Shown: positions 11,790 through 47,536, counted from the stretch's first letter. The stretch is 64,000 nucleotides of DNA from Syntrophales bacterium (GCA_963662405.2 CAXXKT010000002.1:6578-70577), one strand, 5' to 3'. Made by a program: numbers and translations. Notes: generated from the sequence alone by a model not told the origin.

Positions 11790-12460
11790 TGCCTCATTAT
11801 CGCGCTCCCGGATCAGCGTATGCTATGAACGAAGATGAAAAGCAAACAATCATTATCGCCTCGGAAAACAAGGGAAAGGTACGAGAACTTAAAGCGCTGC
11901 TTGAGGGAATGGAAGTGGACCTCCGGTCGCTGAGCGACTATCCTGACGCTCCTCATGTCGAGGAGAATGGGCGCACATTTCTTGAGAATGCCTTCATAAA
12001 GGCACGCACGATATCTGACTTTACCGGCATGACGGTCATTGCGGACGATTCCGGGTTGGAGGTTGACGCGCTCGGGGGGAGGCCTGGTATATATTCGGCC
12101 CGATATGCGGGAGATACAGCGACAGACGAAGAAAATATTTGCAAACTCTTATACGAAATGGGATCTGTTCCGGAAGGCAAGAGAGGGGCAGCCTTCCGTT
12201 GTGTGCTGGTTTTGTACCGGACCAACGGGACCTCTGAAACCTTTGAGGGGACATTGAGAGGATCAATTACTCGGGAACCATCGGGTAAAGAAGGATTCGG
12301 TTATGACCCCGTCTTTTTTGTCCCGGAATATATGGTCACCGTTGCCGAACTCGATCCGGCTGTCAAGAACCGGATCAGTCACCGGGGAAAGGCATTTGCA
12401 CAGCTCAAAGACCGTTTGGCCAAGGACCAGGCGGTCGATAAAAACTCAATCGGGGCGTAG
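11789..12460 (+). CDS. rdgB: dITP/XTP pyrophosphatase (RdgB/Ham1)
   Basis: Motifs [55 protein letters not shown] overlap with the rph stop; an alternative ATG lies at 11825. The last 10 nt overlap the tRNA 5' end. Confidence 0.9.
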
Positions 12461-12527
12461 CGCAGCCTGGTAGCGCGCCTGCTTTGGGAGCAGGATGTCG
12501 CAGGTTCAAATCCTGCCGCCCCGACCA
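12451..12527 (+). tRNA. tRNA-Pro (anticodon UGG), CCA encoded
   Basis: Manual cloverleaf: acceptor CGGGGCG/CGCCCCG, D arm GCGC-AGCCTGGTA-GCGC, anticodon arm CCTGC-TTTGGGA-GCAGG (UGG), T arm GCAGG-TTCAAAT-CCTGC, discriminator A plus CCA. Confidence 0.95.
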
Positions 12528-25867: not shown

Positions 25868-26045
25868 TTAAATCTTGATGTAAATTTTCTTAAAGTACCC
25901 AGCTGTAACAATCAGTTGCCCTGAATCAGTACGCTATGCGCGCAGCATCTCATGAATCAGTGAATTGATTTGACCCATTCAGGATAAATCATCCGCAGAG
26001 TGTTATGTCTATTAACGAAAGATATATCTATAAGGTGTGAATTTT

Positions 26046-26390
26046 ATGAAAAGAACGATCTCAGTCTTTATCGCATCTCCAAGTGATCTCGCCAATGAGC
26101 GTCGTTATTTCAAGGAAGCAATTAAACAGTTAAACGTAGGCTTTGGCGATGGTGCAAATGTCGAATTTGTACCTTTGGGATGGGAGGATACCCTGGCATC
26201 AACAGGAAGACGGAACCAGGATGTGATCAATAAAGAAGTAGATGAGTGTGATGTGTTTATTTTGGTAATGTATAGACGGTGGGGCCAAAACGCGCTCGAT
26301 GCAGAACCATATACGTCATACACAGAAGAGGAATTTTACAGAGCCCTTGAACGGTGGAAAAAAGAAGAGTCTCCTGAGATATTTGTTTTT
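26046..26390 (+). pseudogene. 5' fragment of a DUF4062 (TIR-like) domain gene, truncated by IS insertion
   Basis: MKRTISVFIASPSDLANERRYFKEAIKQLN...DECDVFILVMYRRWG...SYTEEEFYRALE...PEIFVF follows the DUF4062 pattern (VFISS..DL..ER / DiFigi.g.RYG / T..E...A / lvF). The ORF then runs into IS sequence. Confidence 0.6.
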
Positions 26391-27442
26391 GGCGATTATA
26401 TACTTGACAAACCCATTTGGGGGTGCTATTCTACTTTCAAATGGAGGCAAACCATGAAAACTATAGGATTTGATGCCCCGTATTTCACGGACGATAAAAA
26501 GGCTAGGCTATATCTTGAAAAAGTAAGATGGCCTAATGGTCCAATTTGTCCCCACTGTGGGAGTAATGAAAAGCATTATTCTCTCAAGAGCAAAGAAGAT
26601 TCTAAGAAACCAGTCCGGGAAGGTGTATGGAAGTGCAAAAAATGTAGGAAGCAATTCAGTGTTACCGTGGGAACGGTCTTTGAGAAAAGCCACATACCAC
26701 TTAACAAATGGCTATTTGCAACGTTTCTTATTTGCTCTTCCAAGAAAGGTGCGAGCGCACATCAACTGCATCGTATGATAGGGGTTACCTATAAAACAGC
26801 GTGGTTTATGTTTCACCGTATTAGATACGCAATGGATCAAAAGCCAAAAGGGAAAATGACTGGTACGGTTGAAGCTGATGAGACCTATGTTGGCGGGAAG
26901 GGGCATGGCAAGCGTGGGCGTGGTGCCGAAAAAAAGACTCCGGTCTTTTCCTTGGTAGAACGTAATGGTTCCGTAAGGTCCATGCCAGTAGAGCGCGTTA
27001 CAAGTGTAAACCTAAAGGCCATTATTAGGGAACATGTTGAAAAAACTGCAACTATAATGACCGATGACTTTCTTTCCTATCGTGGCTTGGGACGTGAATT
27101 CTCGTTGCATCACGTCATTAACCATGGTAATAAAGAATACGTCCGTGGGAATGTACACACCAACACGATTGAGGGGTATTTTAGTATCCTTAAACGCGGG
27201 ATAGTTGGGGTTTATCAGCATGTTGGTAAACAGCATCTTCACAGATACCTTTCTGAATTTGATTTCCGGTACAACGAACGTAAAGTTGATGATGCACAAC
27301 GGAGTGTATTGGCTCTGTGTGGCATTGAAGGGAAAAGACTTATGTACAGGGACTCATCGGCAGAAAGAAGGATTGCAATGTGAGGTCTTTTGATATGACT
27401 GAAATAAAAATACGGGTTTTGTTAAACAAGGGGAAAATCGGT
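26391..27442 (+). mobile_element. IS1595-family insertion sequence (boundaries approximate)
   Basis: Gapped imperfect inverted repeats: GGCGATTATATACTTGACAAACCCATTTGG (from 26391) versus the reverse complement of 27407-27442 (ACCGATTTTCCCCTTGTTTAACAAAACCCGTATTTT). They enclose a single transposase gene. No clear target duplication was found. Confidence 0.5.
26454..27383 (+). CDS. IS1595-family transposase
   Basis: Own RBS GGAGG, then ATG 26454 (MKTIGFDAPYF). N-terminal zinc ribbon CPHCG...CKKCRKQFSVTVGT, then a DDE domain (VEADETYVGG, IMTDDFLSY, HTNTIEGYFSILKRG). Confidence 0.85.
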   Translation: MKTIGFDAPYFTDDKKARLYLEKVRWPNGPICPHCGSNEKHYSLKSKEDSKKPVREGVWKCKKCRKQFSVTVGTVFEKSHIPLNKWLFATFLICSSKKGASAHQLHRMIGVTYKTAWFMFHRIRYAMDQKPKGKMTGTVEADETYVGGKGHGKRGRGAEKKTPVFSLVERNGSVRSMPVERVTSVNLKAIIREHVEKTATIMTDDFLSYRGLGREFSLHHVINHGNKEYVRGNVHTNTIEGYFSILKRGIVGVYQHVGKQHLHRYLSEFDFRYNERKVDDAQRSVLALCGIEGKRLMYRDSSAERRIAM

Positions 27443-28192
27443 GTTCCCCTAGATAAACTTGGAAACATTTCTAGTGAAACGATGAAATTCTTGCGTTTAA
27501 TGACTCGTGATGTGGGAATTTCTTCCTTTGACAAAGGCAAATGGATAGCGAAAAATTTTGAAAATGGTTCTCTTGCTTATGATAGCGTTTATGAGGGTGT
27601 CTATGAGCAGGAACATGTAGAAAAGTTTAATGCTGGGATTGTATATACAACTTCTCGTTTGCAAGAGGATATACCACGCTGCGATTTTGTGAGTTCTGAA
27701 ACCATGTTGCAATATACAAAAATCGGGAATCATATTGATGCAGGAGAAGTAATTGAGTTTGGACTGTACAAAAACGGAACGAGAGTTCCCGGTGAATGGA
27801 AAGAGCTAACAAAAGAAAAGGCGGAACAAATATCCAAGGTTGTTAAAACTTATGTAGAATATATGGGCTCAATATATGGCTCCATTCACGCTTTTAACAA
27901 GGGTGCTAAACCACAATTTATAAGTGTAAGGGATGCCATAACCGGTGATTTGATTCATTGCGAATTTGGGTTAGAGCACTATCAAGATATAATACGAGCC
28001 CTTAAAGGACCAAATTCAACTGTATATATTTCTGGTCGGATTAAAGAAAACCTTGTCACCAAAAAGATTGACTCCATTTCTTTAACAAGAATTAAGGTTG
28101 CTCCTGTATTATCTGATGAAGAATATCACATGTTTTTTGGATGTGCTCCCGATATTGAATCAATAAAGGATGATGATATCTATGGAGACTGA
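27395..28192 (+). CDS. hypothetical 266-aa protein; possibly the displaced 3' part of the DUF4062 gene (from ~27443)
   Basis: Open frame from 27380; the first ATG is 27395, 12 nt after the transposase stop and inside the putative IS right end. No P-loop or other motif was recognised. Its stop overlaps the PIN gene start by 11 nt. Confidence 0.5.
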   Translation: MTEIKIRVLLNKGKIGVPLDKLGNISSETMKFLRLMTRDVGISSFDKGKWIAKNFENGSLAYDSVYEGVYEQEHVEKFNAGIVYTTSRLQEDIPRCDFVSSETMLQYTKIGNHIDAGEVIEFGLYKNGTRVPGEWKELTKEKAEQISKVVKTYVEYMGSIYGSIHAFNKGAKPQFISVRDAITGDLIHCEFGLEHYQDIIRALKGPNSTVYISGRIKENLVTKKIDSISLTRIKVAPVLSDEEYHMFFGCAPDIESIKDDDIYGD

Positions 28193-28739
28193 AAACCGGG
28201 TATACATGGATTCGTGTTGTTTTATTGATATGGCGAAGATGGCAAAAATTACTCATCTCAATAAAAACACACACGATCCAACCGGAAGAACTGAGGATGT
28301 ATGGTACTTGAGGCGTCTGTGTGATGCTGCTAGGGCTGGAGATATCGAGATTATAAGCTCAACGTTGGCAATAGCCGAATGTCTTCATGATGGCAATCGA
28401 GACAAAATAGATGATACAGCAAAGGATTTATTTGAAAAATACCTAACTTCAGGAAGTGTTGTTTTACCTATTGAAGCTGGGTATGATGTGTGTGTTCAAG
28501 CGAGAGATTTATTTTGGAGGCACGGGATTCTTTTGTCGGGTGCAGATCAGGTGCATCTCGCATCAGCAATTGAAACGAATTGCAGGGAGCTCATCACCAC
28601 TGACGAGAAAATACAGACTAGGCAGAAATTTCATGATGCTATTGCGCCAATAGAGAAAATACTTGGAATCACAGTTATTCGCGCTTCGGCTACCACGATA
28701 TTGCCGGGGAAATATAGACAAGTACAAGCAGGCATATGA
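28182..28739 (+). CDS. PIN-domain nuclease
   Basis: METENRVYMDSCCFID (first Asp), LAIAEC (Glu), GADQVHLASAIE (Asp) and LITTDEK (Asp) give the four conserved acidic positions of PIN domains. RBS AAGGA. Confidence 0.7.
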   Translation: METENRVYMDSCCFIDMAKMAKITHLNKNTHDPTGRTEDVWYLRRLCDAARAGDIEIISSTLAIAECLHDGNRDKIDDTAKDLFEKYLTSGSVVLPIEAGYDVCVQARDLFWRHGILLSGADQVHLASAIETNCRELITTDEKIQTRQKFHDAIAPIEKILGITVIRASATTILPGKYRQVQAGI

Positions 28740-29509: not shown

Positions 29510-31678
29510 GTGATTGATTTTAAAAAACGATTAGAAGATACGAGGCAGATTATTTATCGCTATTTCGACGATAAATCTGGTTTTGTCAAAGAGGTGGATA
29601 GCCATCTTCGTGCTTACGTAAAAGGAGATTTACCTAAAACGCCGTCAAGCAAAGATATAATTGTATTACCCACGGCTGCGATTGAAGAGATTGAAAAAGC
29701 TAAAACCTATGCTGAACAGAAAGCTTTAGAGGCAGAACAAGCTCATGATAATGCAGAAAAAACGCGTATTAAATTAGAGAAAATGCAATTACAAACTGCA
29801 AAGGATGCGGCGGAATTATCAAAAGAGGGGAAAATAGAATATGCACGGGAGAAATTTTCAGAGCTTTTAATAGAGTCAGTTGATTTGAGGATTTTATCTC
29901 TTGCATATGAGTTCTTCAATTGTACAGGTGATTTGGATTCAGCATTTGAAGCTTCGAGAAAGTGGTTAAGCATAAGTGGTCCTGATCAGAAATCCGCTGC
30001 TACAGCAAGTGCCTATGGCAATCTCGGAGTTCTGTATAAGACGCGAGGCGATTTTGAGCGCGCAGAAGAAATGTACCAAAAGTCATTGGTTATCGATGAG
30101 GCACTTGATCGTAAAGAAGGCGTGGCAATCACCTATGGCAACCTCGGTGTCCTGTATCAGATACGAGGTGACCTTGAGCGCGCAGAAGAAATGTACCAAA
30201 AGTCATTGACTATCAATGAGGAGATTGGTCGTAAAGAGGGTATGGCAAATGCCTATGGGAACCTTGGAGTTCTGTATAAGATGCGAGGCGATATTCAGAA
30301 GTCCGAAGAAATGTATCATAAGTCATTGGCTATCGATGAGAAGATTGGTCGCAAAGAGGGTATGGCAAATGCCTATGGGAATCTCGGGATTTTGTATCAG
30401 ATACGAGGTGACCTAGAGCACGCCGAAGAAATGTTTCAAAAGGCATTGACCATCAATGAAACGCTTGGTCGCAAAGAGGGTATGGCAAATAACTATTCTA
30501 GCCTCGGAATCCTCTATATAACGCGAGGTGACATCGAGAGATCCGAAGAAATGCACCAAAAGGCATTGGCCATAGATGACGCGCTCGGTAGCAAAGCCGG
30601 TATGGCAAATGAATATGGCAACCTCGGAATCTTGTATATGAAACGAGGCGATCTTGCGCGAGCCGAAGAAATGCACCAAAGAGCATTGGCCATCAATGAG
30701 GCTCTTGGTCGCAAAGAAGGTATGGCAAATGCCTATGGCAACCTCGGAATCCTGTATAAGACGCGAGGCGACCTTGCGCGAGCCGAAGAAATGTTTCAAA
30801 AGGCATTGACCATCAATGAAACGCTTGGTCGCAAAGAAGGTATGGCAAATGACTATTCAAACCTCGGGATCCTGTATAAGACGCGAGGGAACCTAGAGCA
30901 CGCCGAAGAAATGTACCAAAAGGCATTGACCATATCTGAGGCACTTGGCAGCAAAGAGGGTATGGCAATTGACTATAGCAACCTCGGGATCCTGTATAAG
31001 ACGCGAGGCGACCTAGACCGCGCAGAAGAAATGTACCAAAAAGCATTGGCCATCGATGAAGCGCTTGGTCGTAAAGAGGGCATGGCAAATGAATATGGCA
31101 ATCTCGGGATACTGTATATGGATCGGGGCGACTTAGAACGCGCCGAAGAAATGTACCAAAAGTCATTGGCTATCAATGAGGAGATTGGTCGCAAGGAGGG
31201 TATAGCAAATGCCTATGGAAACCTCGGAATTCTGTATCAGAGGCGAGGTGATCTAGAGCACGCCGAAGAAGTGTTCCAAAAGTCATTGGCTATCAATGAG
31301 GAGATTGGTCGCAAGGAGGGTATAGCAAATGCCTATGGGAACCTCGGGATACTGTATCAGATGCGAGGGAACCTAGAGCACGCCGAAGAAATGCACCAAA
31401 AGTCATTGGCTATCAATGAGGAGATTGGTCGCAAAGAGGGTATGGCAATTGGCTATAGCAACCTCGGGATCCTGTATAAGATGCGAGGGAACCTAGAGCA
31501 CGCCGAAGAAATGTTCCAAAAGTCATTGACTATCAATGAGGAGATTGGTCACAAAGAGGGCATGGCAATTGGCTATAGTAACCTCGGGATCCTGTATAAG
31601 ACACTAGGCGATCTTGAGCGCGCTGAAGAAATGCACCAAAGGTCATCACATCTTTTTACTGAATTGAAAAAATCATAG
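29510..31678 (+). CDS. tetratricopeptide-repeat protein (14 tandem 40-aa TPR_10/12-like units) with unique ~165-aa N-terminal region
   Basis: 722 aa, with the unit xYGNLGILYxxRGDLExAEEMxQKxLAINEExGRKEGMAN repeated 14 times. GTG start as given by the track, and no strong RBS, so the start is uncertain. Confidence 0.8.
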   Translation: MIDFKKRLEDTRQIIYRYFDDKSGFVKEVDSHLRAYVKGDLPKTPSSKDIIVLPTAAIEEIEKAKTYAEQKALEAEQAHDNAEKTRIKLEKMQLQTAKDAAELSKEGKIEYAREKFSELLIESVDLRILSLAYEFFNCTGDLDSAFEASRKWLSISGPDQKSAATASAYGNLGVLYKTRGDFERAEEMYQKSLVIDEALDRKEGVAITYGNLGVLYQIRGDLERAEEMYQKSLTINEEIGRKEGMANAYGNLGVLYKMRGDIQKSEEMYHKSLAIDEKIGRKEGMANAYGNLGILYQIRGDLEHAEEMFQKALTINETLGRKEGMANNYSSLGILYITRGDIERSEEMHQKALAIDDALGSKAGMANEYGNLGILYMKRGDLARAEEMHQRALAINEALGRKEGMANAYGNLGILYKTRGDLARAEEMFQKALTINETLGRKEGMANDYSNLGILYKTRGNLEHAEEMYQKALTISEALGSKEGMAIDYSNLGILYKTRGDLDRAEEMYQKALAIDEALGRKEGMANEYGNLGILYMDRGDLERAEEMYQKSLAINEEIGRKEGIANAYGNLGILYQRRGDLEHAEEVFQKSLAINEEIGRKEGIANAYGNLGILYQMRGNLEHAEEMHQKSLAINEEIGRKEGMAIGYSNLGILYKMRGNLEHAEEMFQKSLTINEEIGHKEGMAIGYSNLGILYKTLGDLERAEEMHQRSSHLFTELKKS
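30011..31675 (+). repeat. tandem 120-bp coding repeat array (about 13.9 units)
   Basis: The period is exactly 120 bp (unit starts 30011, 30131 ... 31571). Several non-adjacent units are nearly identical at the DNA level, e.g. 30421-30490 vs 30781-30850 and 31141-31215 vs 31261-31335. Confidence 0.9.
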
Positions 31679-36644: not shown

Positions 36645-37541
36645 TTATGCCGAAGAGGACTTTGTCGATACTGCAGTTTTCTTTTTGAAAGAAACCCCTG
36701 AGATCTCATAGGAAATCGCACCAAATTTACACGATGACTGCATACATTTCAGACAGCGAATACAATCGTGTTGATTGGCGCCTTCGTAAAACCGCACCCC
36801 CATGGGGCAGTGATTGTAGCACTCTTTACACAGGACGCATTTGTCGGGATAATGCACCATCCTGAAGACGCTGACTTTGTTGAAGAGGGAGTAGATCGCC
36901 CCCAGGGGGCAAACGATTCGGCAGAAGGGTCGCTTGATGAACACCATTAGGGCCAGGGAAATGATCAGAATAACGATCTTGTTGAAATAGAGCCAACCGA
37001 AGAGTTCACGCAACTGGGGCTGGAGAAGGGTAAGGGGAATCCCCGCCTCAAGTGTTCCCGCCGGGCAGACATATTTACAGAACCACGTGACCCCGTAACC
37101 GAGCCCGTCAACAGCCAGAAGGGGGAGAAGGATTACAAAAAGGGCCAGAAAGCCGTATTTGAGATAGGTTAACCAGCGAGGGATCTCCATCTTACGCGAG
37201 GGAATCTTGTAAATCAGCTCCTGAAGAAAGCCGAAGGGGCAGACCCAGGCACAGGGCATGCGTCCGACCAGGCTCCCGGTCATCCCCAGTACCCCCAAGA
37301 CATACAGACCGATGTGCGTATTGCCCGCCTTGAGACTCGGCCTGACATTCGCGAAAAGCGTCTGGAGCGAACCGAGGGGGCAGGCCCCCGTCGCCGCCGG
37401 GCAGGAATAACAGTTGAGCCCGGGGACGCAGATTGATTTGAGCTTCCCCTGGTATATGTTCCGGGTAAAGGGGAAGAGGAGGTAGGCGTTGCTGATCAGT
37501 GTTGCCGCACCCTGTATCCATCGTCGCAGGCGCGCCATCAT
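36645..37541 (-). CDS. membrane polyferredoxin (NapH/MauN-like 4Fe-4S binding protein)
   Basis: Start moved to ATG 37541 (MMARLRRW), which overlaps the upstream miniprotein stop. It has repeated CxxCxxxCP motifs (CYSCPAATGACP, CKYVCPAG, CVLCKECYNHCP) within TM segments. Confidence 0.75.
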   Translation of the reverse strand: MMARLRRWIQGAATLISNAYLLFPFTRNIYQGKLKSICVPGLNCYSCPAATGACPLGSLQTLFANVRPSLKAGNTHIGLYVLGVLGMTGSLVGRMPCAWVCPFGFLQELIYKIPSRKMEIPRWLTYLKYGFLALFVILLPLLAVDGLGYGVTWFCKYVCPAGTLEAGIPLTLLQPQLRELFGWLYFNKIVILIISLALMVFIKRPFCRIVCPLGAIYSLFNKVSVFRMVHYPDKCVLCKECYNHCPMGVRFYEGANQHDCIRCLKCMQSSCKFGAISYEISGVSFKKKTAVSTKSSSA

Positions 37542-37684
37542 CCGATACCTATGCAACTCAGACAGATACGGACAGCTTTCTCCCAGACAGCCGCTGCTTC
37601 TCCATTGATAATACCGATAATGACACAAGCCAGGGAGAGAAAAAAGAGAATGAAGCCACCCTTGCTGACGTTTTTCCGTATCAT
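37538..37684 (-). CDS. 48-aa membrane miniprotein with C-terminal CxxC (CD1871A-like family, from memory)
   Basis: Not in the ORF track. Translation: MIRKNVSKGGFILFFLSLACVIIGIINGEAAAVWEKAVRICLSCIGIG. ATGA overlap with the polyferredoxin gene. Confidence 0.5.
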   Translation of the reverse strand: MIRKNVSKGGFILFFLSLACVIIGIINGEAAAVWEKAVRICLSCIGIG

Positions 37685-37717: not shown

Positions 37718-38236
37718 TTAGTTGTTTGCACGCTCCTTCTCACACTCATCAAGAAGTGCGACTATCTTTCCTTCGATGAATGCCTTGTCTCGGCGGCCGA
37801 GGATTGATTCCACGACCGCTCCGTTTTTTATCAGATAGGAGAGAGGGATAGCAGAGATACGATAGTGTTTGGCGACCTTTTCGCCTCCCCAGTAAACGGG
37901 GAACTTGAGCCCCATCTGATCCACAAGCGGTTGCATTGCCGATGGTCCCCCCATATCAAGGCTGATCCCAATTATCTTAAGGCCTCTGTCTTTGTACTTC
38001 TCATACATCTCCTGGAGAACCGGTAGTTCTGCCCGGCACGGAGCGCACCACGCAGCCATGGCGACCAGCATAACAGGGCACCCCCGTTCCTGTATCAATG
38101 TTTCGATTCCGGCAACATCAATAGGAACGATGGTGTTTTTTGTGTCCTGCGGAGGGGATGGTTCATCCTGAGAACAGCTGGAGGATATGGCCACGCACAA
38201 TAGAATGACCAGAACAATCATCAATTTTTTTTTCAT
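37718..38236 (-). CDS. TlpA/ResA-like thiol:disulfide oxidoreductase lipoprotein
   Basis: Start moved to MKKKLMIVLVILLCVAISSSCS (lipobox). It has a thioredoxin-fold WCAPC active site. Confidence 0.8.
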   Translation of the reverse strand: MKKKLMIVLVILLCVAISSSCSQDEPSPPQDTKNTIVPIDVAGIETLIQERGCPVMLVAMAAWCAPCRAELPVLQEMYEKYKDRGLKIIGISLDMGGPSAMQPLVDQMGLKFPVYWGGEKVAKHYRISAIPLSYLIKNGAVVESILGRRDKAFIEGKIVALLDECEKERANN

Positions 38237-38360
38237 AGTTTCCCCTTGATCTTGCTTGGTATCCTTCGCTCGAAGTTGAAACACCGATGAACTTTATCAT
38301 AATGGGACTGCAAATCAAGGGTTTTCGGCTTTATGATAGGCAACAGCGAACGAGAATCGA

Positions 38361-38564
38361 TCAGAAGGAGAGCGCTTCGCCCTTTCTCCGGCGATTTTTT
38401 GAGGTATGATCGCCGTTGTCCCCCAACTTCGCTTTTTTCCTGCGGCATTCCATGCACCGTCTGGGGATGCTGAAATTACGGGTTCTGTACCTGCGCTGTT
38501 CGGAGGCGGTGAAGACAAATTCATCCCCGCACTGAATGCACCTGATTGTGATATCGTCCACCAT
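38361..38564 (-). CDS. zinc-ribbon protein
   Basis: Start moved to MVDDITIRCIQCGDEFVFTASEQRRY...PRRCMECRRKK (two CxxC pairs). It is the last gene of the kamA operon string. Confidence 0.55.
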   Translation of the reverse strand: MVDDITIRCIQCGDEFVFTASEQRRYRTRNFSIPRRCMECRRKKAKLGDNGDHTSKNRRRKGEALSF

Positions 38565-38580
38565 TCGGTTCCTATCGGTA

Positions 38581-39063
38581 TTATTGCGATTTATCAATGT
38601 TCTTCATGAAGATGACCTTGGTGTCTCCCTGCCGGTAGAAATCCTCCAGGATACAGACACTGCCATACCCCTGCTTTTTATAGAACCGTCGGGCAGGGGC
38701 ATATGGAGGGGAGCTTGAGGTATCGACATACACCTTTCCGCCTCCTTGCATGGCAATAATCTTCTCCATGAACTCGACAAGTTCGGACGCAACACCCCTC
38801 CCTCGAACCGGTGGATCTATCGCGATCCAATAAAGGTCATAGCGACGATCAGTCATCGGTATCGGGCCGAAGCAGATATACCCTCGGAATTGCCCCGCTT
38901 CGTCATAGGAGGAAAAGGCCTGATAGTCGCCACCATCCTTTCGCGCCAGTACCTGATCGACAATCTCCATCGCGACGGCGATCTCTGCTTCGTTAAAAAC
39001 GCCCGTCTGTTTCAGAATACGGAGGATCTCTTTTCTATCCTGATGTGTTATCGGTTTGATCAT
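38581..39063 (-). CDS. GNAT-family N-acetyltransferase
   Basis: Start moved to ATG 39063 (MIKPITHQDR). It has the acetyl-CoA motif VRGRGVASELVEFMEKI...ARRFYKKQGY. One nt separates it from the upstream stop. Confidence 0.8.
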   Translation of the reverse strand: MIKPITHQDRKEILRILKQTGVFNEAEIAVAMEIVDQVLARKDGGDYQAFSSYDEAGQFRGYICFGPIPMTDRRYDLYWIAIDPPVRGRGVASELVEFMEKIIAMQGGGKVYVDTSSSPPYAPARRFYKKQGYGSVCILEDFYRQGDTKVIFMKNIDKSQ

Positions 39064-39064
39064 A

Positions 39065-40063
39065 TCAGCACAACCGGAGTGACATAAATTGCAAGAAATA
39101 ACGCACCATCTCAGCATACGGAATCCCCGCATGTGAGAGAGAAGCGACAAATCCCGCATCCGGGCTGATGCACGGATTCGCATTAATCTCAAGGACAAAG
39201 GGGGTGTTCCGGGAGTCCGTCCTGATGTCGACCCGTGCATAGTCCCTGAGCATGAAGATACGAAAGCATTCACGGGCGATCTCCTCGAGTGATCCCTTGA
39301 GCGGAGAGGGGAGGTTATGAGGGAATTTTCTGACGGCGTTGTGATATTCCGGTGCCGATGCATCCCATTTTGCCCGATATCCAACGATACGATGGGTATC
39401 GGCCGGAAATGCCGAAAAATCTATCTCTGCTATCGACATCACATCGGCCGTGGGATAACCGAAAAGGGAGACGTTGAATTCCCTTCCGTCGATGTATTCC
39501 TCGACGAGCAGGGACCCGAACCGTTTGTGAAGAGAGGGAAGTGCCTCCCGCAGGACATTTTCATCAAGAAAGACCGATTCCTGATCGATCCCGATACTGG
39601 CGTCCTCGAATCTCGGTTTTACGATGATCGGGAAAGCGAGACAGGCGGCATTAAAATGGGGAGTACCTTCATATATGAGATATCCCGGTGTCCGTATTCC
39701 ACACGCCTTCAATATCCGTTTTGTCGTGACCTTATCCGTCGTATAGGTGATGGCCCACGAGGGTGATCCGGTAAAGGGGATTCCCAGGAGCTCGAGGAGA
39801 GCGGCGGCGTGACCGGAAAAGAGAGGATTCTCATCGACGGTCTCACAGAGGTTGAAGACCTGATCGACGGGCTTGTCCCGAATCGTTGCAAGAAACGCAT
39901 CTACATTCCGGGAAAAAGGAATTCGTATGGAGGGGTAACCCAGATCGCAGAAGACTTTCTCGATCGCGGCCACCTGTCTCATGACATCAGAAGAGGACTC
40001 GGAAAAAGAGTAGGGACCTGATGGTGGGACATTGTGCACCAATCCTATCAATGAGTTCTTCAT
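39065..40063 (-). CDS. ATP-grasp ligase, D-alanine--D-alanine ligase family (paralog 2)
   Basis: 332 aa with ATP-grasp blocks (FPIIVKPRFEDASIGI, LVEEYIDGREFNVSL, ARVDIR...FVLEINANPCISP). Confidence 0.75.
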   Translation of the reverse strand: MKNSLIGLVHNVPPSGPYSFSESSSDVMRQVAAIEKVFCDLGYPSIRIPFSRNVDAFLATIRDKPVDQVFNLCETVDENPLFSGHAAALLELLGIPFTGSPSWAITYTTDKVTTKRILKACGIRTPGYLIYEGTPHFNAACLAFPIIVKPRFEDASIGIDQESVFLDENVLREALPSLHKRFGSLLVEEYIDGREFNVSLFGYPTADVMSIAEIDFSAFPADTHRIVGYRAKWDASAPEYHNAVRKFPHNLPSPLKGSLEEIARECFRIFMLRDYARVDIRTDSRNTPFVLEINANPCISPDAGFVASLSHAGIPYAEMVRYFLQFMSLRLC

Positions 40064-40066
40064 GGC

Positions 40067-41062
40067 CTACATACATACCTTACCCGCGCCGTTCAAGCGG
40101 CCCAGGGCAGAGCGCATAATCGCATCAATCAGCGCGGTGTAGGTCATCCCCCTCCGTGCGGCGATGATACAGAGGTCCGAATTTTCCGGATGAAGTCCGG
40201 CAATGGGATTCACCTCCATGAAGTTCGGCACCCCCGCGGTATCCACGCGCAGGTCCACACGCCCCGAATCTCTTCCCCCGAGGCCGTGCCATGCCCTGAG
40301 TGCCGTCTCTTCCGCCTGCCGTGCTATTCCATCGTCCACCAGGCGGTATTCGACCCGTTCCTTGAAACGCTCTTTATTCTCGTAGGAATAGACTTCCGGG
40401 TCGGCGTTGTCCTTGAGCAGGACCTCAATGGTGCCCATTGATACGGCATTCTTCCCCGTGCCGAGGATCCCCACGGTGAATTCGCGGCCGGGGAGAAAGG
40501 TTTCCACTAATGCGGCCTGTCGGTGTTCTCGGATAATCTTTTTGCATACCTGTTCAAGTGCATGCCGATCGGTAATCTTTGATGCGGCGTCAATCCCTTT
40601 TCCGGTCCCCTCTGCGACGGGTTTCGCAAAGAGAGGGTAGGGGAGATCAACGGTGGCAATCTCCGCCTCCGATTCCACGATACAGAACGAGGGGGTAGGG
40701 ATTCCCAGATCCCGGAGTACCCGCTTCACCATCCCCTTGTGCAGGGTCAGGGAGAGGATCAGGGGATCGGAGAATGTATAGGGAATTCCGTACGCATCGA
40801 GAAGCGCGGGGACTTGTGCCTCACGCCCGTATCCCCGGAGACCCTCGGCGATGTTGAAGACGATATCCCAGCGATCTCCCGAGCTGAGCCGCTGCACCAG
40901 GGCCTTGACGTTGCCGATCCTTACGGGTTCATGTCCGAGATCCCTCAGACTTGTTTCTATCGCGAGGATCGTCTCCTCACGGTCGAACTCCGCCGTCGCC
41001 TCGGCGCCGTATCCGGCACGGAGATACTCATCGCGGAGATCGTAGGTCATACCAACTTTCAT
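40067..41062 (-). CDS. ATP-grasp ligase, D-alanine--D-alanine ligase family (paralog 1)
   Basis: Start moved to ATG 41062 (MKVGMTYDL). ATP-grasp blocks: YPLFAKPVAEGTGKGI, LVETFLPGREFTVGI, GRVDLRVD...NFMEVNPIAGLHP. Confidence 0.75.
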   Translation of the reverse strand: MKVGMTYDLRDEYLRAGYGAEATAEFDREETILAIETSLRDLGHEPVRIGNVKALVQRLSSGDRWDIVFNIAEGLRGYGREAQVPALLDAYGIPYTFSDPLILSLTLHKGMVKRVLRDLGIPTPSFCIVESEAEIATVDLPYPLFAKPVAEGTGKGIDAASKITDRHALEQVCKKIIREHRQAALVETFLPGREFTVGILGTGKNAVSMGTIEVLLKDNADPEVYSYENKERFKERVEYRLVDDGIARQAEETALRAWHGLGGRDSGRVDLRVDTAGVPNFMEVNPIAGLHPENSDLCIIAARRGMTYTALIDAIMRSALGRLNGAGKVCM

Positions 41063-41086
41063 CGCTTGCAAAATTCTCCTCAACGC

Positions 41087-42385
41087 CTAATGAATCTGAG
41101 CCGCATCCCCGTCGAAATACCGATAGAGATCGCCGGCATAGTTCTTCAGAACGACGTCGTCGCCCTCCCGCCCCATCACGTAATCGGGCATCAGGGGGAC
41201 TTTTCCCCCTCCGCCGGGACAGTCGATGACGTACGTCGGAACGGCGAAGCCGCTCGTGTAGCCACGCAGTCCCCTGATAATCTCCAGCCCTTTCTCGACC
41301 GGTGTCCTGAAATGTCCCGATCCGATAATCGGGTCACACTGGTAGAGATAGTAGGGCCTGACACGCATCATGACCAAGCCGTGAAAGAGCCGGCGCATAG
41401 TTTCAACGTCGTCGTTGATCCCAGAGAGCAGAACCGTCTGGCTCTGCAGGGGGATCCCGGCGTTCGCGAGATTGCTGCAGGCCTTTCTCACGTCCTCCGT
41501 CAGCTCCGCGGGATGGGTAAAGTGGATACTCATCCAGAGGGGATGGAACCGCCCCAGCATCCGGCAGAGGGCGGGGGTAATACGCTGAGGCATGACCACC
41601 GGCGCCTTGGTGCCGATTCGCAATATCTCGACGTGGGGGATCCGGCGCAATCGGGACAGGAGCCATTCCAGAGTGTCGTCCGGAAGGGTCAGAGGATCTC
41701 CCCCCGAAAGCAGGACGTCACGTATCGCACTGTTCGATTCGATATATTCTATTACCTTGTTCCACCTGTCTATCGAAAGACTGTGGTCCTTGGGACCTCC
41801 CACAATCCGTGACCGGGTACAATAGCGGCAGTAGGTCGAGCAGGTATCGGTTATAAGGAAGAGCACCCTGTCGGGATAACGATGAACCAGGCCAGGCATG
41901 GGGGCATCCTTCTCCTCTCCCAGGGGGTCCTCACTCTCTCCCCGGGTCCTGACCCTTTCCGCCGCGGTCGGAATAACCGTTCGTCGCAGTGGTTGGGAGG
42001 GATCGCATGGATCGAGAAGGCTTGCGTAATATGGTGTGATCGCAACGGGTAATGCGGTACCATACGCGCTGAGAGCGCTGCGCTCTTCCGCGCTGAGTCG
42101 GAACATCCCTTCGAGTTCGTCCAATGTAGTGATTCGATGGCGGAGCTGCCAGCGCCAGTCATTCCACTCGAGCGCACTCGCCCCCTTAAAAAATTTCCTT
42201 CGGAACTGGAGGGCCCCGCATTTCGCAGAAAATCCCGAAACAGCTTCCAATCTCGAGACTTTTTCCAGACCTGCACCGTCCGTTTTGATTCTATGAGCGT
42301 CTGTGTTTACCGTTCCAAGGGTCACAGACGCGGTACTACCGTCGGGAGGCTCGCCATCCTCAAGGCTGATTTCCTGTTTCTCCAT
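41087..42385 (-). CDS. kamA: lysine 2,3-aminomutase (radical SAM, KamA/AblA family) with ~80-aa N-terminal extension
   Basis: 432 aa. The CSTYCRYCTRS cluster motif, LSGGDPL, and WNDWRWQLRHRITTLDEL are characteristic of KamA-family enzymes. Confidence 0.85.
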   Translation of the reverse strand: MEKQEISLEDGEPPDGSTASVTLGTVNTDAHRIKTDGAGLEKVSRLEAVSGFSAKCGALQFRRKFFKGASALEWNDWRWQLRHRITTLDELEGMFRLSAEERSALSAYGTALPVAITPYYASLLDPCDPSQPLRRTVIPTAAERVRTRGESEDPLGEEKDAPMPGLVHRYPDRVLFLITDTCSTYCRYCTRSRIVGGPKDHSLSIDRWNKVIEYIESNSAIRDVLLSGGDPLTLPDDTLEWLLSRLRRIPHVEILRIGTKAPVVMPQRITPALCRMLGRFHPLWMSIHFTHPAELTEDVRKACSNLANAGIPLQSQTVLLSGINDDVETMRRLFHGLVMMRVRPYYLYQCDPIIGSGHFRTPVEKGLEIIRGLRGYTSGFAVPTYVIDCPGGGGKVPLMPDYVMGREGDDVVLKNYAGDLYRYFDGDAAQIH

Positions 42386-42424
42386 CGTTATTTTCCCCCT
42401 CGTTTGGGAATGCGAATCGAATCG

Positions 42425-42712
42425 TTATTCCAATACTTCATAAGACAATACCTTGATCACTCGATCTCCCTCATCTTCAACGATCTCTCCGGCGACCTTC
42501 ACCTTCTCTCCGGCGTGACCAGCCAGTTCCTCCCCGTTATCATCCGTCATTATTTCGTAAACCTGATCGCCGTCTGCGATAATCTGAAAGTCATCGTTGA
42601 CCTCACCCACGATCGTCACCGTACTCGCCCCCCATGCAACACCCGAGATCAACACGGTAGTCATTATCAACACAAACCCCAGACATACAAAACACCGTAC
42701 CTTCTGAAACAT
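42425..42712 (-). CDS. small exported protein (95 aa), first gene behind the sigma-54 promoter
   Basis: ATG 42712 lies 10 nt after AAGGAGG. The signal-like MFQKVRCFVCLGFVLIMTTVLISGVAWG is followed by an acidic beta-rich domain. Confidence 0.6.
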   Translation of the reverse strand: MFQKVRCFVCLGFVLIMTTVLISGVAWGASTVTIVGEVNDDFQIIADGDQVYEIMTDDNGEELAGHAGEKVKVAGEIVEDEGDRVIKVLSYEVLE

Positions 42713-42754: not shown

Positions 42755-42770
42755 GCAAACAATGTGCCCA
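42755..42770 (-). promoter_or_regulatory. sigma-54 promoter (GG-N10-GC): TGGGCACATTGTTTGC on the minus strand
   Basis: The reverse complement of 42755-42770 gives GGCAC-N5-TTGC with exact -24/-12 spacing. It lies ~30 nt upstream of the RBS/ATG at 42712 and next to the gene for a sigma-54 activator. Confidence 0.7.
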
Positions 42771-42823: not shown

Positions 42824-42840
42824 CGGAACCCTGAGTTCCG
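42824..42840. promoter_or_regulatory. palindrome CGGAA-N7-TTCCG (candidate enhancer/UAS 1)
   Basis: ATCGGAACCCTGAGTTCCGAT has 8-bp perfect arms, about 90 bp upstream of the predicted sigma-54 start. Confidence 0.45.
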
Positions 42841-42946
42841 ATTAAAGAAAACGGTGAAACGAAAAGACTTCAGATATAAAGTAATACCCTTTGTTATTAT
42901 AGGCTAATACGACGAGAGGAACTAATTGTTCCCATTACAGGTATAC

Positions 42947-42963
42947 CGGAATTGAGAATTCCG
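42947..42963. promoter_or_regulatory. palindrome CGGAA-N7-TTCCG (candidate enhancer/UAS 2)
   Basis: CGGAATTGAGAATTCCG has the same half-sites and spacing as 42824-42840, about 210 bp upstream of the predicted start. Confidence 0.45.
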
Positions 42964-43019: not shown

Positions 43020-44471
43020 TTACCTGGGCGAATTCATTCTCGGCACCTTAAAATCGTTCTTGTTGAGGTCGTAGCGGTTCAACAGCTTGGAGAGCTGGCG
43101 GGTGGTAATCCCTGCCCTCCGCGCGGTGGCACTGATGCTTCCGCGTTCCTCAGCAAGGATCTCCTTCAGGTAGAGACGTTCCACCTGTTCGACCCCCGCC
43201 TGTCTGAGCTCCTTGAGGGTCAGCGAGGAGTCGATCCGGATCCCCCCCGCACCGGCCTCGTTTTCAAAGAGTTCACCCGGGAAACTCTCGGGGTTCAGGA
43301 CCGATGATTGCTCGATAATATGAGCCCGTTCGATTAGGTTCTGAAGCTCACGTATATTCCCCGGCCATGAGTAGCGCATGAACGCCTGCAGTACATCGGG
43401 ATGGATGTCACGGATTTCCTTCTTTGAAAACTGATTCAGTTTTTTCAGGAATATCTCGACGAAGAGGCGTATATCCTCCCTGCGCTCCCGTAAGGAAGGG
43501 ATCTCAATGGGAAAGACGTTCAGGCGATAGAAGAGATCTCTCCTGAATGTGCCGGCATCGGTCATCCTTTTCAGGTCCGTGTTTGTTGCGGCGATCGTCC
43601 GGACATCGGCATTGATTATCTCCTCACCACCTACCCGCTGAAAGAGCCCCTCCTGAAGGATCTGGAGGAGTTTGATCTGCGCGGCGGGGGTGATCGTTCC
43701 GATCTCGTCGAGGAAGATGGTCCCCCCCTTTGCGATTTCAAATTTTCCCAGTTGTCTCCTCACGGCGCCCGTAAATGAACCCTTTTCGTGCCCGAAGAGT
43801 TCACTCTCCAGGAGCGTTTCGGGAATTGCACCGCAGTGGAGACTGATGAAGGGACCGTCCTTTCGATTACTGTGCCGGTGGATCAGTTTTGCGAGAACGC
43901 TCTTGCCGGTCCCCGTGTCGCCGCTGATCAGAACGGTGCTGTTGGTGGACGCGACCAGCCGGGCCTTCTCGAAAACCTGTTTCATCGCCGGGCTTCTCGT
44001 CTGGACCAGTTCGAGCGAGTCCCCTTCCCAGAACTTGTCCCGAAGATATTCAAACTCAGACTGCATGACAATCGACTCATAGATGCTGTCCGCGACGTAT
44101 TTCACTTCATCGGGATCGAGTGGGTAGGTCAGATAGTTGCTTGCCCCGGCCTTGACCGCCATGACGGCTTCCCTGATCGTCTCCGGGGGCGACATGACGA
44201 TTATCTCCACATCGGGGGCGGCGAGCCAGAAGGGTTGGAGCGCTGTTTTGTATCCGTTTCCTCCTGTTCGGCTTCGGAGAATAGCGAGATCGATAAAGAG
44301 AAAATCGTAATGCCGATCGCGGAGCAGTTCTATGGCTATATCGAGATTGGCAGCCTCGTCAATCACCTTTCTCTCGCGAAAACCGGTACACACTGTCTGA
44401 AAAGCAGATCGATCCGGCGCGATTACAAGGGCAGTACGCGATGTTTTAGGTCGATTTCGGAATGATCCCAC
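43020..44471 (-). CDS. sigma-54-dependent response regulator (NtrC family)
   Basis: 483 aa: a receiver-like N-terminus, an AAA+ core (GDTGTGKSVLAKLIH, ESELFGHEKGSFTGA GAFTGA-type loop) and a C-terminal Fis-type HTH. GTG start as in the track. Confidence 0.9.
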   Translation of the reverse strand: MGSFRNRPKTSRTALVIAPDRSAFQTVCTGFRERKVIDEAANLDIAIELLRDRHYDFLFIDLAILRSRTGGNGYKTALQPFWLAAPDVEIIVMSPPETIREAVMAVKAGASNYLTYPLDPDEVKYVADSIYESIVMQSEFEYLRDKFWEGDSLELVQTRSPAMKQVFEKARLVASTNSTVLISGDTGTGKSVLAKLIHRHSNRKDGPFISLHCGAIPETLLESELFGHEKGSFTGAVRRQLGKFEIAKGGTIFLDEIGTITPAAQIKLLQILQEGLFQRVGGEEIINADVRTIAATNTDLKRMTDAGTFRRDLFYRLNVFPIEIPSLRERREDIRLFVEIFLKKLNQFSKKEIRDIHPDVLQAFMRYSWPGNIRELQNLIERAHIIEQSSVLNPESFPGELFENEAGAGGIRIDSSLTLKELRQAGVEQVERLYLKEILAEERGSISATARRAGITTRQLSKLLNRYDLNKNDFKVPRMNSPR

Positions 44472-46404: not shown

Positions 46405-46671
46405 GTGAAGCGCAAACGATTTGCAACGGAACAGATTATCAAAATTCTCAAAGAGGCTGAGCTGGGTATCAAGATTACGGAACTGTGTAGAAAGCATGGC
46501 ATATCCGAACAAACCTTTTACAACTGGCGGAACAAGTACGGCAGCATGGATATAAGCGAGGCAAAACGCCTGAAGCTCATCGAAGTTGAGAATCGCCGCC
46601 TCAAACGCCTGGTAGCCGATCTGCGCCTCGACAAGCAGGTATTAAAGGACCTCCTTGAAAAAAACTTCTAA
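46405..46671 (+). CDS. IS3-family transposase OrfA (HTH)
   Basis: 88 aa (GTG start). MKRKRFATEQIIKILKEAELGIKITELCRKHGISEQTFYNWRNKYG plus a leucine zipper. GAAAAAAAC slippery site at 46657-46665. Confidence 0.85.
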   Translation: MKRKRFATEQIIKILKEAELGIKITELCRKHGISEQTFYNWRNKYGSMDISEAKRLKLIEVENRRLKRLVADLRLDKQVLKDLLEKNF

Positions 46672-47536
46672 CGCCCACGGCGAAGAGAGGAGCGAGAGAT
46701 TATATTATCTCCCACTTTGGGTTGAGCATGAGGAAGGCCTGTAGACTGATAGGGCTCAATCGATCCACGAGCCAGTACCAACCGGTAGCGAGCAAAGAGG
46801 AGAAACTCACGACGCGAATGAAAACTCTGGCATATAAACATAAACGCTACGGAAGCCCCCGGCTGCATGTATTGTTGAAGAAAGAAGGACTCGTTGTCAA
46901 CCACAAGAGGACCGAACGAATCTACCGGCAAGAAGGATTATCACTACGGGTGCGCACAAAGAAGAAACGGGTGATGCCTGTGCGCGGTACCATGCACTGG
47001 GCATCGGGGCCACAGGATGTATGGTCCGTAGACTTCGTGTCTGATTCTCTTTCGGATGGAAGGAGATTTCGGATATTGACAATCATCGATGATTTTACCC
47101 GAGAGTCTCCCGGAATCCTGGTTGCACGATCCATCTCTTCGAGAAGAGTCACTAGCTTCATTGATCAGATTGCTTTATATCGTGGCTATCCCAACCGCAT
47201 CAGGGTGGACAACGGTCCCAGTTCGCCAGCGCCTGGTTTCATGCTTGGTCGGAGAAACAAAACATCACCGTTGAGCATACCCGTCCTGGGAAACCCTCTG
47301 ACAAGGCCTTCATTGAGAGTTTTAACGGGAAGATCAGAGATGAAAGCCTTAACGAACATTGGTTTCTTTCTATCCCTGATGCTCAGTCCAGGATTGAACA
47401 GTGGAGGAATGAGTACAACAAAGAACGACCCCATAGCTCATTGAATAACCTGACTCCCTATGAGTTTATAAAAGAACATGATATGAAAACCATTAGCAAG
47501 AAACTCAATTTACCCTTGGCCTATATAATGGGGTAA
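46659..47536 (+). pseudogene. IS3-family transposase OrfB (DDE integrase core) with an inactivating 1-nt deletion near 47217-47221
   Basis: The -1 frame relative to orfA gives ...RKACRLIGLNRSTSQY...WSVDFVSD...IRVDNGP. The expected continuation (E)FASAWFHAWSEKQNITVEHTRPGKPSDKAFIESFNGKIRDE...RPHSSLNNLTPYEF lies in the +1 frame, ending at 47536. Confidence 0.8.

Follow-up and report, generated by a model that had tools for sequence, protein, structure and literature searches.

Four settings of beta-lysine are known: the osmolyte pathway of AblA and AblB, the modification of elongation factor P (EF-P), lysine fermentation, and a few antibiotics. AblA and AblB produce N-epsilon-acetyl-beta-lysine. 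Another acetylated, peptide-like compound, N-acetylglutaminylglutamine amide (NAGGN), is produced by Ngg, which combines a GNAT with an ATP-grasp ligase. The Ngg ATP-grasp is RimK-like rather than Ddl-like; as far as is known, the characterised enzymes of the Ddl clade join small molecules. In Bacillus thuringiensis, kamA has a -24/-12 promoter and depends on sigma-54 and the enhancer-binding protein KamR (PMC4428206). Here we analyze a stretch of 64,000 nucleotides from a Syntrophales bacterium (GCA_963662405.2, CAXXKT010000002.1:6578-70577), called the window below, in which a gene for a KamA-type lysine 2,3-aminomutase is followed by genes for two ATP-grasp ligases (AG1 and AG2) and a GNAT acetyltransferase. 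The original prediction for this locus was an operon in which beta-lysine is ligated and acetylated to a small molecule, perhaps a compatible solute. The arrangement proves to be a real cassette, and its best reading is a sigma-54-dependent operon for a small, cytoplasmic, N-acetylated amide derived from beta-lysine, to which we assign a probability of roughly 0.55.

The six genes lie on the minus strand, as follows. The first gene encodes a small exported OB-fold protein (42425-42712; 95 aa from an ATG with the ribosome-binding site AAGGAGG). It is followed by KamA (41087-42385; 432 aa, motif CSTYCRYCTRS, Radical_SAM and LAM_C domains), AG1 (40067-41062; 331 aa from the ATG used by homologues and by independent gene calls), AG2 (39065-40063; 332 aa), the GNAT (38581-39063; 160 aa, Acetyltransf_1), and a Zn-ribbon protein (38361-38564/38597; 67 or 78 aa, zf_Tbcl). 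Gene calls made independently on identical metagenome contigs give the same products of 95, 432, and 331 aa. The intergenic gaps along the string are 39, 24, 3, 1, and 16 nt, and no terminator-like or sigma-70-like site was found on the operon strand inside it. Thus, the predicted string of six co-directional genes with gaps of 1-40 nt is present in full, with gaps of 1-39 nt, and the domain calls for KamA, both ATP-grasps, the GNAT, and the Zn-ribbon are borne out by Pfam and NCBIfam. The six genes look co-transcribed, and because the gaps are short and no internal terminator is seen, we count the operon anatomy as support for a joint pathway.

Co-conservation of kamA, two ATP-grasps, and a GNAT had been proposed as a check. 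A scan with an AG1 profile over one genome per GTDB species matched at least 599 stretches, of which at least 560 encode a relative. In a protein search with AG1, the best 120 among the matches listed are at least 62% identical. The counts given here and below come from the best 80 of the at least 560 AG1 matches, compared by tblastn with the window proteins as queries; presence was counted in loci with enough flanking sequence. The order KamA-AG1-AG2-GNAT is kept nearly everywhere in the 80 loci, with KamA present in 74 of 75 evaluable loci, AG2 in 67 of 70, and the GNAT in 57 of 66. Median identities across loci are 62% for AG1, 60% for KamA, 41% for the GNAT, and 40% for AG2. The cassette order occurs in Thermodesulfobacteriota, Planctomycetota, Ignavibacteriales, Bacillota, and Neomarinimicrobiota, that is, in at least five phyla; the locus groups also include Syntrophales, Smithella, Desulfobulbales, Desulfobacterales, Desulfatiglandales, and one Bacteroidetes genome. 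Since the identical order recurs across 80 loci and five phyla, the arrangement is far beyond chance, and the cassette is a real one, carried by several hundred anaerobic bacterial species.

Of the cassette genes, AG1 is the most highly conserved, and it is KamA's invariant partner. Three loci (L028, L037, and L078; two from Bacillota, one from Thermoguttaceae) contain KamA and AG1 alone, and the annotated flanks of the two Bacillota loci hold unrelated genes. Because the two genes occur without the other cassette genes in these three loci, KamA plus AG1 is the minimal unit. The sole locus among the 75 evaluable ones with AG1-AG2 and no KamA is L070, on a Bacteroidetes metagenome-assembled chromosome (OY969556.1); upstream of its AG1 lie a gene for an NAD-dependent epimerase and a gene with no Pfam match. 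Among the recurrent neighbour clusters of the 80 loci, none encodes a transporter, a protease, or a carrier. Phosphate-transport genes, a gene for a LysA-like decarboxylase, and MurI lie downstream of the cassette in Smithella and Syntrophaceae only; they were considered as parts of the system and rejected as inherited synteny of that lineage.

The assignment of KamA as a lysine 2,3-aminomutase was examined residue by residue. The protein matches the solved Clostridium lysine 2,3-aminomutase 2A5H with an E value of 1e-140. Its CSTYCRYC motif aligns to C125, C129, and C132 of 2A5H, the ligands of the radical S-adenosylmethionine cluster, and is kept in 71 of 71 orthologues. In the same alignment, R191 corresponds to the carboxylate-binding R134, and K395 to K337, the lysine that holds pyridoxal phosphate (PLP). 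D351 and D388 correspond to D293 and D330, which hold the epsilon-ammonium of the substrate lysine, and are kept in 71 and 70 of the 71 orthologues, respectively; in glutamate 2,3-aminomutase these two positions are Lys and Asn. Overall, the catalytic and lysine-binding residues are all kept in 70-71 of the 71 cassette orthologues.

Family models agree with this assignment in their ranking. KamA passes the subfamily model TIGR00238 (344 bits; cut-off 199), and the NCBIfam aminomutase models rank lysine (478 bits) above glutamate (423) and arginine (404), all three scores being under the equivalog cut-offs. The EpmB model gives 250 bits, with a cut-off of 369. We conclude that KamA is probably an L-lysine 2,3-aminomutase making beta-lysine, as predicted at the outset and now graded very probable, yet it is not an AblA equivalog. 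An N-terminal extension of about 80 aa had also been described; the alignment with 2A5H shortens it to about 57 aa, and its median identity among orthologues is 17%. A single metagenome contig encodes a protein of 510 aa (P0068) in which the C-terminal part of KamA reads through into a full AG1. This one KamA-AG1 fusion is only a hint and may be an artefact of sequencing or assembly.

AG1 and AG2 are distant paralogues with 27% identity. Both match Dala_Dala_lig_C in Pfam (88 and 74 bits). Every solved structure that they match in sequence is a D-Ala-D-Ala, D-Lac, or D-Ser ligase, with E values of 1e-17 to 1e-25. RimK, cyanophycin synthetase, and glutathione synthetase give marginal matches only. 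An AlphaFold2 (AF2) model of AG1, with a predicted local distance difference test (pLDDT) score of 86, superposes on DdlB with template-modelling (TM) scores of 0.77-0.83. Residues were compared with an E. coli DdlB sequence of the expected length, 306 aa. DdlB residues K97, K144, E180, E187, K215, R255, D257, E270, and N272 are kept in AG1, in AG2, and in their families, and because this ATP, Mg, and catalytic set is retained, both are predicted to be active ligases.

The D-Ala pocket, in contrast, is replaced. AG1 has the changes S150T, Y216E, and L282D, with S281 staying S; AG2 has S150A, Y216W, G276C, and S281A-L282G. The column of DdlB E15 is aligned uncertainly, and the invariant AG1 motif TAEFD may be its equivalent. 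The best scores with the NCBIfam Ddl models are 134 bits for AG1 and 111.5 bits for AG2, against a cut-off of 243. From these comparisons, the description of both proteins as Ddl-type ligases stands: they are of the Ddl clade, not the RimK clade, and they are not true D-Ala-D-Ala ligases. The acidic AG1 replacements Y216E and L282D might fit a cationic substrate, as far as this can be inferred from side chains.

Distant AG1 homologues, at about 28-31% identity, are found on rhizobial symbiosis plasmids, where they are annotated 'ATP-grasp domain-containing protein'. These are pNGR234a of Sinorhizobium fredii NGR234 (L084; 200291-215181) and 13 other plasmids. On pNGR234a, the one region examined, the homologue has a CapA-family gene and pieces of a sigma-54 regulator as neighbours, and KamA is absent from its vicinity. 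This setting looks like a different, likewise uncharacterised system.

The GNAT matches Acetyltransf_1 at 1.2e-10 and carries the acetyl-CoA motif RGRGVA. Its length of 160 aa is supported by homologues of 157-162 aa; a longer version of the open reading frame, of 267 aa, overlaps AG2. The AblB model TIGR03827 gives no match at E <= 0.01 in NCBIfam, so the enzyme is distinct from AblB, as the original prediction implied. The best NCBIfam match is RimI, at 33.6 bits and under the cut-off. An orthologue has a solved structure, 2R7H (E value 5e-28), the sole solved member of the cassette; its name, 'putative D-alanine N-acetyltransferase', is a guess from structural genomics, and its source is probably Desulfovibrio alaskensis G20, an organism with fitness libraries.

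A second acetyl-handling gene is also recurrent. Fifteen loci, spread over several lineages, encode a GNAT-HDAC fusion of about 580 aa, placed between AG2 and the GNAT or behind the latter; L023, L055, and L074 are examples, the last being from the cultivable Desulfopila sp. IMCC35006. The HDAC domain of the fusion matches acetylpolyamine amidohydrolases (APAH; 6PHR, 9GKZ, and 3Q9B) with E values of 1e-66 to 1e-73, and bacterial protein deacetylases (HDAH) at only about 1e-35. The possibility that its GNAT domain is a paralogue of the cassette GNAT was rejected after comparison. The 64 kb window has no homologue of the fusion. The best reading of this gene is that the product is reversibly acetylated in some genomes.

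The Zn-ribbon gene, in contrast to the enzymes, does not belong to the cassette. It is co-directional here and had been included in the predicted string, but of the 80 loci, L001 and L010 alone have it close by, and in L003 and L020 it lies 2 kb off. That is, it is confined to the nearest relatives and is a lineage-specific passenger outside the core. The zf_Tbcl match is 4e-12. A role as a LysW-like carrier was also considered and rejected, as the C-terminus is basic and the gene is limited to the nearest relatives.

Upstream of the operon, at 43020-44471 on the same strand, is a gene for an NtrC-type sigma-54 enhancer-binding protein. It contains Response_reg, Sigma54_activat (2e-67), AAA_lid_14, and HTH_8 (a Fis-type helix-turn-helix), and it has a GSFTGA loop. 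A -24/-12 promoter, GGGCACattgtTTGC, lies at 42755-42769 on the minus strand, ends 42 nt short of the operon's first ATG, and has one mismatch to TGGCAC-N5-TTGC. Three palindromes of the form GGAA-N7-TTCC, at 42825-42839, 42918-42932, and 42948-42962, are predicted activator sites; the 64 kb window has four occurrences in all, and these three sit together in the 250-bp intergenic region between regulator and operon.

The same elements accompany the cassette elsewhere. An orthologue of the regulator with at least 55% identity adjoins it in 18 of the 80 loci. Sites of the -24/-12 type are found upstream of the cassette in 26 of 73 loci, against 4 of 73 in the reverse control, and in 16 of the 18 regulator-adjacent loci. 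One to three copies of GGAA-N7-TTCC lie beside the regulator gene and upstream of the OB-fold gene or operon in 17 of these 18, against a background density of 0.096 per kb; in L012, where the regulator is downstream of the cassette, a copy is also found upstream of KamA. Overall, regulator, sites, and small OB-fold protein are found jointly in 18 of the 18 regulator-adjacent loci. From this pattern, the NtrC-type protein is likely the dedicated activator of the operon, the palindromes are probable upstream activator sites, and the operon is, by these signals, under sigma-54/NtrC-type control. Control by a riboswitch was considered and rejected, as Rfam gives only a tRNA in the window, and no lysine riboswitch anywhere there.

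The small protein encoded by the first gene consists of a signal peptide and a mature domain of about 65 aa with a net charge of -14. It has no match in Pfam or NCBIfam. The AF2 model has a pLDDT of 82-87 over the mature part and the topology b1-b2-b3-helix-b4-b5; Foldseek returns only OB-folds (RPA, SSB, SilF, and YgiW), all weak (E >= 6e-3), of which SilF and YgiW are periplasmic. A hidden Markov model (HMM) of the family finds it in 18 of 18 regulator-adjacent loci and in 8 of 50 others, always directly before KamA or behind the regulator. Exported and cytosolic forms both exist. The only invariant residues are G39 and Y55, with no conserved Lys, Glu, or C-terminus, and the acidity of the window protein is not kept in the family. 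The exported protein noted in the predicted string is thus present, but it follows the regulator: the family is tied to the sigma-54-regulator version of the module and lies outside the enzymatic core. The gene was also considered as the precursor of a peptide that is made by the ribosome and modified after translation (RiPP), and rejected because the protein is a folded OB-fold domain.

In six loci (L012, L026, L051, L053, L054, and L080), the OB-fold gene is a tandem pair that stands before KamA or after the regulator. Both copies were read for L012 and L054; there, one copy has a signal peptide and the other does not, which suggests paired cytoplasmic and periplasmic forms.

These observations can be assembled into a proposed pathway. 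The NtrC-type response regulator would bind the three GGAA-N7-TTCC sites and activate the -24/-12 promoter before the OB-fold gene. KamA would convert L-lysine to beta-lysine. AG1 would form an ATP-driven amide bond involving beta-lysine, and AG2 a second amide bond. The GNAT would then acetylate a remaining free amine, the simplest candidate being the aminoalkyl (epsilon) amine that is acetylated in N-epsilon-acetyl-beta-lysine. In some genomes, this acetyl group would be removed by the APAH-type deacetylase that is fused to a GNAT. Such a pathway would yield an N-acetylated conjugate of beta-lysine, resembling a di- or tripeptide and kept inside the cell as a regulated metabolite linked to stress or nitrogen; a compatible solute is one possible role. 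The sequences themselves show the gene structure, the kept residues, the co-conservation, and the regulatory motifs. That AG1 uses beta-lysine, that each ligase makes a single bond, where the acetyl group goes, that the product stays in the cell, and what it does there are all points that we infer.

A small-molecule product is favored for the following reasons: the two ligases are Ddl-clade enzymes; the deacetylase linked to them belongs to the APAH type, which acts on small molecules; recurrent neighbours include no transporter, protease, or carrier; and the system grows by modules, from KamA plus AG1 to the addition of AG2, the GNAT, and the deacetylase. Ligation and acetylation of beta-lysine into a small molecule, the core of the original prediction, is therefore still the best reading, and the recurrent APAH-type deacetylase strengthens it. 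The window does have genes for CorA, MscS, and a BON protein near the operon, as had been noted, but none of CorA, MscS, TlpA, BON, and an AI-2E transporter is found beside the cassette in related loci by tblastn, even in the closest genome, L001. The argument from an osmotic neighbourhood is thus rejected, since CorA, MscS, and BON are specific to this genome, and with it the osmolyte argument loses its support from the neighbourhood. Instead, because the operon is under sigma-54/NtrC-type control, its regulation points to a regulated response to stress or nitrogen, and not to osmoadaptation in particular.

Several points weigh against a small acetylated beta-lysine amide. The pathway is predicted from its genes, and the co-substrates of AG1 and AG2 are not readable from sequence. 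The locus counts rest on the 80 best AG1 matches, a biased sample. About 14% of the evaluable loci have no GNAT, and a few have no AG2. KamA scores 478.4 bits with the AblA equivalog TIGR03820, under the cut-off of 525.4; the match spans profile positions 4-362 of 417, with the C-terminal part absent, and the protein is about 40 C-terminal residues shorter than the clostridial enzyme. A pathway confined to the cytoplasm would leave no place for the OB-fold protein, which in this genome is exported. Finally, the samples behind the loci are from freshwater, groundwater, peat, and marine sites with no bias towards halophiles or salinity, and for this reason an osmolyte role is not indicated.

Three other explanations were weighed, all of them at odds with one or more of the features tested. 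The one that survives best, though it is unlikely, is modification of a macromolecule: the two ligases would couple beta-lysine, or a short beta-lysyl peptide, to some protein, as an EpmA-independent beta-lysylation or a RimK/LysX-like tagging, with the GNAT and the APAH-like enzyme writing and erasing acetyl groups and the OB-fold protein as target or adaptor. A small conserved protein is indeed the first operon gene in 27 of the 80 loci, and a small protein with two ATP-grasps and a GNAT is superficially like the clusters of microviridins and other graspetides. Against this, the OB-fold protein is missing from two thirds of the loci, it is exported in this genome whereas the enzymes are cytoplasmic, and its family has no invariant residue besides G39 and Y55 and no conserved Lys, Glu, or C-terminus. 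The median identity of AG1, higher than that of KamA, could reflect a macromolecular partner, and the weak best family match of the GNAT is the RimI model. Yet both ligases belong with Ddl and not with RimK, LysX, or the graspetide ligases, and the associated deacetylase resembles enzymes that act on small molecules. Nor does a protease or transporter recur, and no EF-P-sized (about 185 aa) or further ligase family is seen among the recurrent neighbour clusters, in which EpmA and EF-P were not explicitly searched for.

Quite unlikely, too, is a polymer or oligomer synthase, in which iterative ATP-grasp reactions would yield oligo- or poly-(beta-lysine) or a nitrogen-rich polymer like cyanophycin, with acetylation tuning its charge. 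Sigma-54/NtrC-type control is typical of nitrogen metabolism, and with two paralogous ligases, a chain could be both lengthened and branched. AG1 is weakly similar to the ATP-grasp domain of cyanophycin synthetase, but this similarity is marginal and local (E values of 1e-3 to 1e-8) compared with that to Ddl, and neither ligase has the extra oligomerisation and primer-binding domains of the known polymer synthetases. The acidic mature OB-fold protein of this genome, at a net charge of -14, could bind a polycation, but its relatives do not share that acidity.

A synthesis of D-Ala-D-X-type or beta-lysine dipeptides for peptidoglycan precursors or another envelope polymer is very improbable: the nearest solved relatives of the ligases are D-Ala-D-Ala, D-Lac, or D-Ser ligases, the first gene product is exported, MurI is encoded a few kb downstream in Smithella and Syntrophaceae, and the solved GNAT orthologue bears a D-alanine name, but the D-Ala-binding residues are replaced in both ligases, the Ddl scores (134 and 111 bits) are far under the cut-off of 243, no mur, flippase, or transferase gene recurs, the MurI linkage is confined to one lineage with phosphate-transport genes in between, and the name in the PDB is a guess.

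The small acetylated amide is thus preferred. A more speculative idea, to which we give little weight, combines features of the first two alternatives: conjugation, free of EpmA, in which AG1 and AG2 would link beta-lysine or a short chain of it to a macromolecule or extend it into a polycationic oligomer, with the GNAT and APAH as writer and eraser of charge, a dedicated sigma-54 two-component switch, and the OB-fold protein as binder or adaptor. If true, it would represent a novel type of reversible post-synthetic modification with a wide distribution among anaerobes.

The surroundings of the operon contain other features. Directly downstream of the Zn-ribbon gene are two co-directional genes, one for a TlpA-like thioredoxin lipoprotein (37718-38284) and the other for a membrane polyferredoxin-like 4Fe-4S protein (36645-37628); a gap of 124 nt sets them apart from the operon, and they are not conserved with the cassette. 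On the regulator side, about 2 kb away and just past the BON and AI-2E transporter genes, is an IS3-family element (46405-47444) with orfA (HTH_Tnp_1) and orfB (rve integrase). The segment 22000-31700 has a low GC content (0.385-0.43, compared with about 0.5 elsewhere) and includes genes for an IS1595-type transposase-DUF4062 fusion (26037-27383), a PIN-domain protein (28170-28739), and a TPR protein of 722 aa (29510-31678); the segment is probably an island of mobile or foreign DNA. A defence system was considered and rejected, as PADLOC gives no match. The sole RNA gene found in the window by Rfam and ARAGORN is a tRNA-Pro (anticodon tgg) at 12451-12527.

The cassette would add a fifth, ATP-grasp-based use of beta-lysine. 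Its carriers, several hundred species representatives of anaerobes, include syntrophs and sulfur cyclers among the Syntrophales, Smithella, Desulfobulbales, and Desulfatiglandales, as well as Planctomycetota, Ignavibacteriales, and Bacillota. Many annotations as 'D-alanine--D-alanine ligase' are probably wrong for genes of the AG1 and AG2 type, and the identity of the product would assign a function to a large set of genes so named. It would also define a new class of metabolite and explain the signal to which the dedicated sigma-54 regulator responds in these organisms. The minimal pair of KamA and AG1 makes the question directly approachable in vitro.

The original prediction held that no characterised pathway has this composition, and none was found in NCBIfam, PADLOC, or the literature searched. 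No curated NCBIfam or PADLOC model names AG1, AG2, or the GNAT, and the literature searched on aminomutases or beta-lysine with ATP-grasp enzymes does not describe the cassette, with an in silico mention in the ATP-grasp survey of Iyer et al. 2009 being possible.

Among the known systems, AblA/AblB and the NAGGN pathway are the two nearest analogies. AblA/AblB of methanogens, some Chlorobi, and Bacillus is alike in that a KamA-type aminomutase is followed by a GNAT in one operon, with an acetylated beta-lysine as the expected outcome. It differs in that the cassette has two ATP-grasps between aminomutase and GNAT, a GNAT without a match to TIGR03827, a KamA under the AblA cut-off, and sigma-54 control. 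The NAGGN pathway (Ngg and AsnO) likewise uses a GNAT and an ATP-grasp to build an N-acetylated, peptide-like cytoplasmic solute; it involves no aminomutase and no beta-amino acid, whereas the cassette enzymes are separate proteins and include two ligases.

Ddl, VanA, VanC, and VanG share the three-domain fold (TM about 0.8 for the AG1 model) and the conserved ATP, Mg, and acyl-phosphate machinery. In the cassette ligases, however, the pocket residues S150, Y216, and S281-L282 are replaced, possibly together with E15, where the N-terminal alignment is uncertain; the scores are under the family cut-offs, and the context is KamA and a GNAT, not mur/dcw or van. The pyrrolysine pathway PylB-PylC-PylD offers a parallel in logic: a radical lysine mutase acts first, and an ATP-grasp then joins the rearranged amino acid to an amine. 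Yet PylB is neither of the KamA family nor a PLP enzyme, PylC is not among the PDB sequence matches of AG1 and AG2, and the cassette lacks PylD and has a second ligase and a GNAT.

In the EpmA/EpmB system, too, a KamA-family aminomutase feeds beta-lysine to a dedicated ligase. That ligase, EpmA, is a paralogue of lysyl-tRNA synthetase and not an ATP-grasp, and the cassette KamA is under the EpmB cut-off. Graspetide clusters of the microviridin type differ in that the small protein of the cassette is a folded OB-fold and no leader-core precursor, and the ligases are of the Ddl clade and not of the RimK/MdnC type. A precedent for the regulation is the kam locus of B. thuringiensis, where kamA is also under sigma-54 and a dedicated enhancer-binding protein (PMC4428206); the accompanying genes are others, with no ATP-grasp pair described, and the type of regulator and the binding motif differ. 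To summarize, the enzyme families of the cassette are familiar, and their combination is an unrecognised and widespread one.

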